DNA of 64,000 nucleotides. Origin: an uncultured bacterium. GTDB taxonomy: Bacteria > Krumholzibacteriota > Krumholzibacteriia > JACNKJ01. The stretch's first letter is position 1. Every line of letters begins with the position of its first letter. The stretch covers positions 2,208,001 to 2,272,000 of the forward strand of contig CAVOFT010000001.1 in assembly GCA_963695095.1 (NCBI GenBank), written 5' to 3'. The position numbers were made by a program. This document shows, in pieces, positions 22,701 to 25,700 of the stretch.

Positions 22701-25700
22701 CGCGCGAGCAAGTCGGCGGCGCTCTCGCCCCGCGTGGGATCCATGCGCATGTCCAGGGGGCCGGCGAGCCGGTGGGCGAAGCCGCGCTCAGGCGCGTCGA
22801 GCTGCATCGAGCTCACCCCCAGGTCCAGGAGCAGACCGGCCGCGCCCTGCGGCGCGCGCTCGGCGAGCGCCGCGGGGAGCGAACGGAAGTCGGCGTGCAA
22901 AAAAAAACCCGGTCGCCGCAGCCCGCGAGGCGCTCTCGCGCGAGGGCGAGGGCGCTGGGGTCGCGGTCGACACCGAGCAGTGTGGCTTCGGGAAGGGCCG
23001 CCAGCAGGGCGGCGGCGTGGCCGCCCGCGCCGAGGGTGGCATCCACGTAGAGCCCGGGTCCTCCGCGCCGCAGCAGGGCGACGCTTTCTTCCCGGAGGAC
23101 CGGCTCGTGGGACATCGTCGTACTCCCCATCCATGGCCGCGCGCGGGCGGGGCCGGCGCGCAGCACAAGGGGGAGCGGCCTAGAACACGAGGCCGCTCCC
23201 CCTGCTCTCACCCTCTTGCGGAACCAACGAAAAGGCGGCGGAAGTGTGACGGATGCCCATGGCCGCACTCGCCTCTGAAGGGTAGACGGGAATGGAACGG
23301 GGAACGTCTCCCGCCGCCAGGATCTCCATCAGATAGAAGCTGGGCGAAGCCAGGACCAGCTCGCCGCCCGCGCGGCGCAGCTCGCGATGCAGGGCGAGCA
23401 GCAGTTCCAGCACCCGATAGCGGATGTGGATGGTGCCCGCCAGGTCCACCACGAAGCCGCGGCTGCCGGCGGCCAGCGCGCCGCGCAGCGTGCGCGCGAG
23501 TTCGCTCTGCATGCGCTCGTCCCACTCGTCGGCGGGACGCAGCAGCAGGTAGTCGCCTCGCTGTTCGCAGATCAGGGCCACGCGTCCATGCTCCTTCGTT
23601 TCTCTCACCCACCTGCGACGCTGGCCGGCGCGCGGCCAGCGCGATCTAGAGCAAGCGCTCCACCTGGCGGAGCGCCGCGTCCACGTTCGCCAGCTCGCCC
23701 GCGAAGTCGGCCGGATTCCAGAGCTCGATGCGATCCAGGGCGCCGACGAGCACCAGCTCGCCCGGCGCGCCGAGCAACTCGAGGAAGGTCCTGGGCAGAC
23801 TCACGCGCCCCTGCTTGTCCACCAGCAGGGAGGCGCTGTTGGCGCTGAAGTAGCGGATGGCCTTGCGCTTCTCGGGACCGGGGGGCAGGGTCTGCAGCTT
23901 GCCCTGGAAGTCCCGCCAGCCCTCGGGGGCGAAGAGCAGGAGCCCCTTGTCGAAGCCCTTGCTGAGGACGAAGGTCTCGCCGCCTTCCAGCCCCAGGCTG
24001 CGCCGGAAGCCAGCGGGCACCTGCAGGCGCCCCTTGCTGTCCAGCTTGCAGCGCTGAGTGCCGATGAAGTCGGCCACCACGATCTCCCCCCGATGCAGGC
24101 TCTGTGCTGGTGATTAGGGGAGCCACTCCATTCTCCCCCACAACGCCCCACTCTATCCCTGGACATGGGGGACGTCAAGGGCCTTCTGGGAAATGTCGCC
24201 ACTAATCGCGGAGCCCAGGCAGGGACCCGTACAAATGTATAGAACATGCCGGTGGACCCCGGCGAGGGAGACGGCGGAGGCCGCTGCGCGGGGGGCAAGA
24301 CCGGAGGCGCGCGACTCAGCGCCCTTCGAGGATGGACAGCAGGCGCGCCCGGGGGCGGGCGCTCACGAGGGGTCGGGGATCGTACTCGGGACTGCCCACG
24401 AGCAGGAGTAGGCCCTCCTCGCCGGCGGGCGGCAGGGGCTCCCTGCCGAGCACGAGAAGCAGGCGCCAGGCGGCCAGGGAGTCGCCCGTCGCGGTGGCGA
24501 AGCGCTGGGCCGCGGCGAAGCGGAACTCCAGGGCCCCGCGGGCCAGGGCGAGGGAGACCTCGCGGCGGCTCAGCGAGCCGGCAGCCGGCCTGGCCGCGGC
24601 CATCAGCGACCCCGCCTCCGCGAGCAGGGCCGCGCCGCGCGCATCCGCCGCGGCGATGGCGAGAACGCCGTGCTCGCTGTGTACGCGAATCTCCGTGTCG
24701 GGGGGAAGAGGCGCGGGGCGCCCGCAATCGATCGCCGCCAGGCCGAGGAGGCCGATCAGCCGGAGGATCAGCGGGGCAGCGCTCACTTGAGCAGCAGCAG
24801 CCGCCGGCTCTCGGCGCCGCCGGCCCAGCGGAACTGGGCCAGGTAGACGCCGCTGGCCTGCACGCGGCCCTCGCTGTCACGGCCGTCCCAGATGCGTTCG
24901 TGGCGGCCCGCGGCGAGCGGACCGTCGACGAGGCGCTGGAGTCGCCGGCCGTCGATGCCGAGGATATCCAGCGTGACGGCGCCGGGCGCCGCCAGGCTGA
25001 AGGCCAGGGTGGTCGCGGGGTTGAAGGGATTGGGATAGCTGCCGACGAAGCCGCTGCGCAGGGCGAGCGCAGGCACTTCCAGGCGCCCGAGCAGCACGCG
25101 CAGGGCGGGCGCGCCGGCCCGATGGCCGATGGCCGTGTACTCCAGCTCGCCGCCCGCCGGCAGATCCTCCTCGCGCCAGAGGCACCAGCCGCCGGGACCG
25201 GGCAGGAGGCCCTCGGCCAGCAGGCGCGGCGCTTCCCAGTCGCCGCCGGCCCTCCGGCGCCGGCCTTCGAGATCCCAGCGCGCGAAGGCCGTGTCCGCCA
25301 CCTGCCAGGCGATGCGCGCGGCGGCGCCGCCCGCCTCGATGCTCAGGTCCACCTGGCTCACGGCCGCAGGCACCGCGTCCCAGAGGCCGGCCACGCCGCG
25401 CCTCAGCGCGCTGCCGGAGAGCGTGGGCCAGGGCACGGTCTCCGGCGCGAAGGGCCCCGCGAAATCCCAGGCGAGGACGCGCTTGTTCCAGGTGGAAACC
25501 ACGAGCTCGCCGTCGCCGTCCCCGTCGAGGTCCGCGATCGCGGGCGTGCCGCGCACCTCGCCGCCCACGGCGATGGGGAAGCCCGGCTGCACGCTCCCGT
25601 CCGCGCGGAAGCCGTAGATGATGCCCTGCTCGCTGCCCTGCACGAACTCCAGCGTGCCGTCGCCGTCGAGGTCCCCCACCACCGGGCTGCACTCGGCGTG

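Follow-up and report, generated by a model that had tools for sequence, protein, structure and literature searches.

What does a STAS-domain gene do between mraZ and rsmH, at the head of the dcw cell-division cluster of an uncultured Krumholzibacteriota bacterium, and does it act there as an anti-anti-sigma factor, as an earlier note on the locus had labelled it? We addressed these questions in a window of 64,000 nt, which is the whole stretch of DNA that was analysed. The dcw genes of the window lie on the minus strand and are arranged as follows.

23646..24080, minus strand: mraZ, dcw transcriptional repressor (Pfam PF02381, E 3.7e-20; TIGR00242)
23180..23581, minus strand: serine-less STAS gene, 133 amino acids, with the motif H52-x-(D/R)54-(Y/F)55-R56 and S81-x-Y83
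22199..23115, minus strand: rsmH (16S m4C1402 methyltransferase) in two reading frames, the first of which stops at 22813
21753..22202, minus strand: ftsL-like gene, from its position and a weak TIGR02209 match (E 0.005, below the cut-off)
19342..21741, minus strand: ftsI (PBP transpeptidase with PASTA), from its domain match
5986..19345, minus strand: remainder of the dcw cluster (murE, murF, mraY, murD, ftsW, murG, murC, murB, ftsQ, ftsA, ftsZ)

Two neighbouring features are recorded here as separate observations. After PASTA, the FtsI tail is a long low-complexity K-P-A-A/T repeat (19342-19700, minus strand), and just upstream of mraZ lies a gene for a large gingipain-like C25 peptidase with FG-GAP repeats and a FlgD-Ig C-terminal domain (24783-29237, minus strand).

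The likely coding sequence of the STAS gene runs from a GTG at 23581 to the stop at 23180, and its 133 amino acids equal the length of its closest relatives; an ORF finder runs a longer form to 23608. The earlier note had the right gene in the right place, and its coordinates (23183..23584) were shifted by one codon. The protein scores 37.7 bits against Pfam STAS (PF01740), above the gathering cut-off of 22.6, and its AlphaFold model (pLDDT 89) matches SpoIIAA-type STAS proteins (Foldseek E 4.7e-9; VIA Z 16.2-16.8). The C-terminal tail of the reading frame is modelled with low confidence, yet it is conserved. Codon bias (GC3 0.84) and a dN/dS of 0.25-0.53 within the window's own family, f1 (0.11-0.53 overall), support a coding gene. 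A relative with 70% identity carries the database label Candidatus Krumholzibacteriia.

The D-S-S-G serine motif is indeed missing from this protein, as had been noticed before, and H-I-R-Y-R-V stands in its place. In the alignment with SpoIIAA, the F-M-D-S-S-G of that protein corresponds to H-[VIL]-D-[YF]-R in the family. Among 80 Krumholzibacteriota members, the phospho-site column holds Tyr in 49, Phe in 20 and Ser in none, and the column after it holds Ser in seven. Phe occupies the phospho-site in all six members of family f3 and in 7/11 of f1, while f6 has neither Tyr nor Phe. His52 is kept in 74/80 members and Tyr83 in 76/80. Fifty-nine dcw STAS rows from Krumholzibacteriota and Myxococcota together contained the His in 58 cases, the Tyr in 58 and the phospho-site serine in none; the Myxococcota profile was built from rows picked for H and Y, so the motif counts in that phylum are partly circular. 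In the model, H52, D54, Y/F55, R56, S81 and Y83 sit at the N-terminal ends of the two helices that follow the phospho-loop, and we infer that they would share a single surface. The family's Tyr aligns with the serine that differs between PDB entries 1th8 and 1tid, a difference that we take to be a Ser58-to-Ala mutant. Ser58 is the phospho-site of SpoIIAA (PMC8256260). With no serine at that position, the dcw STAS protein cannot be controlled through serine phosphorylation there. Since it lacks both the serine and an adjacent kinase or phosphatase gene, we suggest that it performs no canonical partner switch.

How far does the resemblance to known STAS systems go? Like SpoIIAA and RsbV (TIGR00377; PDB 1th8, 1tid and 6m36), the dcw STAS is a single-domain protein. 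The match to 1tid has a Z of 16.2 and an rmsd of 2.3 over 113 residues, and the SpoIIAA/RsbV proteins are also its best sequence-profile matches (E 1e-13). Unlike these proteins, it has Tyr or Phe at the Ser58 position and His at the Phe55 position, and it is fixed inside the dcw operon with no kinase, phosphatase or sigma gene adjacent. Two canonical STAS paralogues in this genome adjoin kinase and phosphatase genes. The dcw STAS scores 24.3 bits against a TIGR00377 cut-off of 53.45 and has neither Ser58 nor the kinase/phosphatase linkage of SpoIIAA/RsbV members, which leaves the earlier label "anti-anti-sigma" without support beyond the fold. The dcw STAS would work like a STAS adaptor and does not belong to the SpoIIAA/RsbV family. 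In MlaFEDB, the STAS fold of MlaB is a protein-binding adaptor. MlaB and the YchM STAS domain with ACP share the fold (7ch7, 7ch8 and 3ny7 are among the fold matches), but they have lower structural scores (Z 8.5 and 12.6), a transporter context and no motif in common with the dcw STAS. SypA, BtrV, RbaV and HmpV are stand-alone STAS proteins as well and are thought to target non-sigma proteins; all four have retained the phosphorylated serine along with a partner kinase/phosphatase (PMC8256260), whereas the serine that such phosphorylation requires is absent from the dcw STAS. The canonical and non-canonical members covered by a review of STAS-only proteins have a phosphorylated serine, and none of them lies in a dcw cluster (PMC8256260).

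We determined the distribution of the gene in Krumholzibacteriota by examining 105 rsmH loci, 25 reached through a STAS query and 80 through the position of mraZ or rsmH. Five of 30 fetched loci (L018, L019, L021, L022 and L029) were weak matches without mraZ or rsmH nearby and were excluded from this census. A STAS gene filled the slot between mraZ and rsmH in 80/80 loci of six families (f1 11/11, f2 33/33, f3 6/6, f4 21/21, f6 8/8, f9 1/1), 79 of them with both flanks on the contig. The slot was empty in all loci of three other families (f5 0/9, f7 0/6, f8 0/10; 0/25 together), where mraZ and rsmH are separated by about 13-129 nt. Loci chosen by mraZ or rsmH position alone were STAS-positive in 55/80 cases. 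A scan of 208 genomes of the phylum, using a profile built from members of the six positive families and with genome counts made by hand, gave strong matches (E <1e-19) in 154/164 genomes of those families. With the same profile there was no strong match anywhere in the 44 genomes of the three slot-negative families. Nine of the ten misses in positive families also lacked an mraZ match, and the tenth fell outside that sample, which suggests assembly gaps. The presence of the gene in Krumholzibacteriota is all-or-none by family. In a tree of MraZ and RsmH from 72 loci, f7 is nested among the STAS-positive families, and its lack of the gene is therefore a secondary loss; f5 and f8 pair at the base with weak support.

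These counts change the earlier picture in several respects. The order mraZ-STAS-rsmH was confirmed in the window and in all 80 positive loci, and is wider and cleaner than claimed. The statement that the arrangement is conserved in the class stands for six families, in which it is fixed; it does not extend class-wide, given the 0/25 loci of the other three, and the arrangement is also found outside the class. Seven loci reported before as having no STAS match plausibly reflect the three families without the gene together with incomplete Pfam detection, as Pfam STAS recovered 44 and STAS_2 49 of 69 true dcw STAS members.

Outside the phylum, searching 1.84 billion representatives with a profile brought up many more proteins with the same His and Tyr, and one such cluster includes Q1D0S1 / ABF87244.1 of Myxococcus xanthus DK1622. 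In 60 loci fetched with Q1D0S1, rsmH was directly downstream in 60/60 and mraZ upstream in 57/60. The gene order was seen in M. xanthus AM003 (98% identical to Q1D0S1) and Myxococcus sp. CA023 (100%), not in DK1622 itself. Among 201 sampled Myxococcota genomes, a tally that includes the unpublished G407, 111 matched at E 1e-8, and in 67 the match was as strong as E 1e-20 or stronger. We could not reproduce the 1,109 (MraZ) and 1,001 (RsmH) genomes previously counted as having STAS nearby; strong matches were found in 154/208 Krumholzibacteriota and in those 67/201 Myxococcota. The best 30 Myxococcota loci all read mraZ-STAS-rsmH. Among 40 further matches across the score range, the serine-less proteins were in the mraZ-rsmH slot in 24/24 cases and the serine-bearing ones were elsewhere in 16/16. 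Position and motif together show that the dcw STAS genes are orthologous, beyond mere proximity. The profiles of the two phyla align with a probability of 99.6% in hhalign (E 1.5e-23), and the slot is kept across both at about 30% STAS identity. A quick tree, from a short search on 126 columns, grouped 30/31 canonical STAS rows on a single branch that excludes all 58 dcw rows (SH-aLRT 94).

Not all Myxococcota carry the gene. In 30 genomes picked for having no dcw-type match, rsmH was found in 28, and mraZ lay close to it with no STAS between in 26/28. One H/Y-type relative outside both phyla is labelled Deferrisomatales. An ESM Atlas search with the STAS protein returned generic STAS clusters only, and a plasmid search with the Myxococcus STAS protein gave no match. 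Among STAS-only proteins, the serine-less dcw STAS is a variant that has not been described before and occupies a fixed slot in two phyla; no paper on a dcw STAS gene was found among the best-ranked matches of the openly accessible literature. In M. xanthus, a tandem PilZ-domain gene lies upstream of mraZ in divergent orientation (L145, 1027-1760, minus strand). The strain tables of a PilZ study list MXAN_5615 among its deletions (PMC8316039), and the M. xanthus STAS gene, going by this PilZ neighbour, may be MXAN_5613. The supplement of PMC11046052 contained no matching locus tags; published transcript or protein surveys of M. xanthus may include the gene. Separately, three loci (L186, L190 from Cystobacter fuscus, and L196) have STAS-rsmH without an mraZ match upstream, where mraZ may be diverged, moved or lost. 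A locus titled Comamonas sp. (L148) is 96% identical to Myxococcus and is probably mislabelled.

We then looked at the signals surrounding the STAS gene, which are listed in order of transcription.

24150..24178, minus strand: putative sigma-70-like promoter upstream of mraZ, a consensus match only (one found; mean of 0.1 in shuffles)
24128..24151, minus strand: MraZ-box-like repeats GTGG-N6-GTGG-N6-ATGG, overlapping the -10 region
23602..23609, minus strand: SD-like GGTGAGAG motif upstream of the STAS start
23205..23212, minus strand: second GGTGAGAG motif, immediately ahead of the hairpin and unchanged at its synonymous positions in 12/12 loci
23169..23202, minus strand: RNA hairpin of high stability that spans the STAS stop codon (z -4.3), terminator-like or processing-site-like

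The repeats were identified with the MraZ box consensus of PMC12957436. Since they overlap the promoter-like sequence of mraZ, the STAS gene is probably under MraZ repression. Box pairs precede the operon in 39/39 Myxococcota loci and 10/11 f1 loci, in only 10/32 of f2, and in 0/8 of f6, where the STAS gene is kept. As a separate observation, no GTG(G/T)-N6 box pair lies within 160 nt upstream of mraZ in 27/27 loci of f5, f6 and f8 (L067-L083, L086-L095), and these lineages may use another MraZ operator. The hairpin recurs in the window's family with z -3.4 to -5.6 in 9/10 sequences folded. Compensatory changes were present in 6/11 pairs; four rows fell out of register, and not every slid control was lower. 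This hairpin would set mraZ-STAS apart from rsmH in f1, and it would probably explain why the low-confidence C-terminal tail is conserved. Both GGTGAGAG copies occur in 8/12 f1 loci, and the motif has 54 copies genome-wide. Rfam gave no match in 22000-25000. One 234-nt contig from an RNA library overlaps part of the STAS gene, which is not proof of transcription.

Downstream of the hairpin, rsmH is split between two frames at one sequence feature.

22899..22907, minus strand: nine-T run at the rsmH frame change, where full-length RsmH would result from one added base or from -1 slippage by the ribosome

An identical T9 is found at the same place in 5/11 f1 genomes from three genera (the window's own, G061, G023, G041 and G029) and in one further metagenome contig (L142), so that all six split rsmH sequences carry it; rsmH is in frame in the remaining six f1 genomes. 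Runs of exactly nine A or T occur only five times in this 3.64 Mb, 70% GC genome. The first frame ends 26-53 codons past T9 in the five split genomes, and rsmH dN/dS is 0.14-0.42 before T9 and 0.30-0.45 after it, which indicates purifying selection on both halves. The split genomes fall into more than one clade of the MraZ and RsmH tree, a pattern that implies either reversions or two origins. We rejected an assembly error as the cause of the split, because the same run is present in assemblies of about 2, 8, 70, 90 and 430 contigs. One DNA contig of a relative crosses T9 without a gap. A metagenome pattern scan gave 16 matches, of which 14 were unrelated, one was identical to G061 and thus not independent, and one was a T9 contig not met before; neither a T8 nor a T10 form of the run was among them. 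A pattern search of the phylum matched 7/208 genomes, two of them outside rsmH. The read comparison covered 4/21 runs, all of them assembled contigs with small shares, and none of the RNA contigs listed in it crosses T9. Elsewhere, in two f2 genomes of different genera (L307 from G192, L308 from G172), rsmH is broken near residue 175 in G+C-rich sequence with no T run, possibly through assembly errors.

The pattern at T9 resembles transcriptional slippage in Shigella mxiE and Thermus dnaX, where a homopolymer also lies inside the gene (a U run in mxiE, nine A's in dnaX); in mxiE, as would be the case here, one added base joins two frames into a long product (PMC1088944). As expected of programmed slippage of the mxiE type, rsmH changes frame at a homopolymer of roughly nine A/T where the long product would be restored, the homopolymer is conserved across genomes, and both frames are under purifying selection. 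Unlike mxiE and dnaX, rsmH is a housekeeping rRNA methyltransferase gene in a 70% GC genome; its split affects part of one family and is known here from DNA alone. We consider it probable that T9 serves functional recoding, with transcriptional slippage as its most likely form. Phase variation is a doubtful explanation, and any other cause of the split seems very improbable. In E. coli, loss of RsmH raised -1 frameshifting 1.2-fold (PMC2831307). A feedback loop through T9 is thus conceivable, which is speculative. The best-ranked matches of the openly accessible literature included no report of an rsmH frameshift, and the main text of PMC3711429 mentions neither mraW nor rsmH.

What, then, does the STAS protein do? 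Its gene, fold, serine loss, position, purifying selection and lineage pattern are established here. We lean slightly towards the view that it tunes something encoded at the operon head, either as a binding adaptor or as a ligand-gated cofactor. The gene belongs to a separate STAS-only family of orthologues with its place at the start of the dcw operon, and is presumably transcribed as the second gene from an MraZ-repressed promoter. Its non-phosphorylated product keeps conserved residues of its own and would regulate the operon head. MraZ is our tentative first guess for the target and RsmH the second. The box pairs upstream of the Myxococcota and f1 operons and the f1 hairpin that divides mraZ-STAS from rsmH point to MraZ, for which cofactors are still unidentified and the signals that act on it open, according to PMC12957436. 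Against MraZ as the target, the box pair is missing from 8/8 f6 loci and present in only 10/32 of f2, and the f2 gene overlap described below points to RsmH. Against the preferred reading as a whole, MraZ and RsmH occur together without STAS in three Krumholzibacteriota families and in the 26/28 selected Myxococcota loci. We found no residue in MraZ or RsmH that tells lineages with STAS from those without it (best column contrasts 0.03 and 0.12). A complex prediction for M. xanthus RsmH, two MraZ and STAS with 59-row alignments scored 0.00, with controls not folded, and counts neither for nor against this reading.

If RsmH or the 30S subunit were the partner, STAS would be made 1:1 with RsmH by translational coupling and would tune 16S C1402 methylation or ribosome maturation. 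The spacing of the genes fits this best in f2, where the STAS stop and the rsmH start overlap in 33/33 loci; they also do so in 9/21 of f4 and 7/39 of Myxococcota, and in most other lineages only a short gap separates STAS from rsmH, against anything from about 2 to 200 nt between mraZ and STAS. The overlap is absent from f1 (11/11) and f6 (8/8), however, and in f1 the hairpin, an SD-like sequence before rsmH and the frameshift in five genomes uncouple RsmH from STAS output. With no diagnostic RsmH residues either, we regard this partnership as unlikely. We also give little credence to a protein that binds a nucleotide or cell-wall precursor, or is tyrosine-phosphorylated, and signals downstream to Mur ligases, FtsA or FtsZ instead of to its neighbours. 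SpoIIAA binds GTP through the same loop (PMC8256260), around which the dcw STAS conserves a His, an Arg and two aromatics, and 49/80 members have Tyr at the phospho-site; but with Phe in 20/80 and neither residue in f6, phosphorylation of a tyrosine at this position cannot be a general feature.

Could the protein be an anti-sigma antagonist that is not phosphorylatable and traps a kinase of the RsbW/SpoIIAB type? Such a role would suit a protein whose closest solved folds and sequences are those of SpoIIAA, and the genome's best PF13581 match lies 22 kb downstream on the same strand. This RsbW-like gene (697-1611, minus strand), at the end of the same run of genes, has an unrecognised N-terminal part, follows ftsZ-TPR-recG-zinc ribbon and has no STAS beside it; in many genomes across the phylum the linkage is kept, at a distance of about 20-26 kb to rsmH. 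We ranked it low as a STAS partner, as the two do not share a distribution: it is kept in the STAS-less families (f5 22/23, f7 6/8, f8 11/13), and our query found it in only 10/91 genomes of f2, in which STAS is general. Of five Myxococcota genomes with a dcw STAS, two lack PF13581 at E 1e-8 and three have it far off or on another contig. Together with the TIGR00377 score of 24 against a cut-off of 53, this makes a kinase trap quite improbable. The small zinc-ribbon protein encoded between recG and the kinase gene (1517-2092, minus strand) matches Pfam Zn_ribbon_4 below the cut-off. The STAS gene could also be a passenger unrelated to division, kept for its promoter or by inertia, since three Krumholzibacteriota families and many Myxococcota lack it with the operon intact, f7 by secondary loss. 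A passenger would hardly be expected never to relocate, with no strong match in the 44 genomes whose slot is empty, and to hold one slot across two phyla at about 30% identity, so we find this highly doubtful.

Returning to an adaptor or cofactor of the operon head, a bolder version of that reading, which we think unlikely, is that STAS is the missing ligand- or partner-gated cofactor of MraZ, while the f1 hairpin and T9 throttle RsmH separately, T9 possibly in a feedback loop. The operon that mraZ and rsmH open is among the most conserved in bacteria, and a third gene kept between them across two distant phyla is a direct candidate for the MraZ signal. The dcw STAS is now open to test, as M. 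xanthus has an orthologue (Q1D0S1 / ABF87244.1). The conserved T9 in rsmH warns that gene splits in MAGs are not always assembly errors and, if it is recoded, rsmH would be a housekeeping addition to the short list of recoded bacterial genes.
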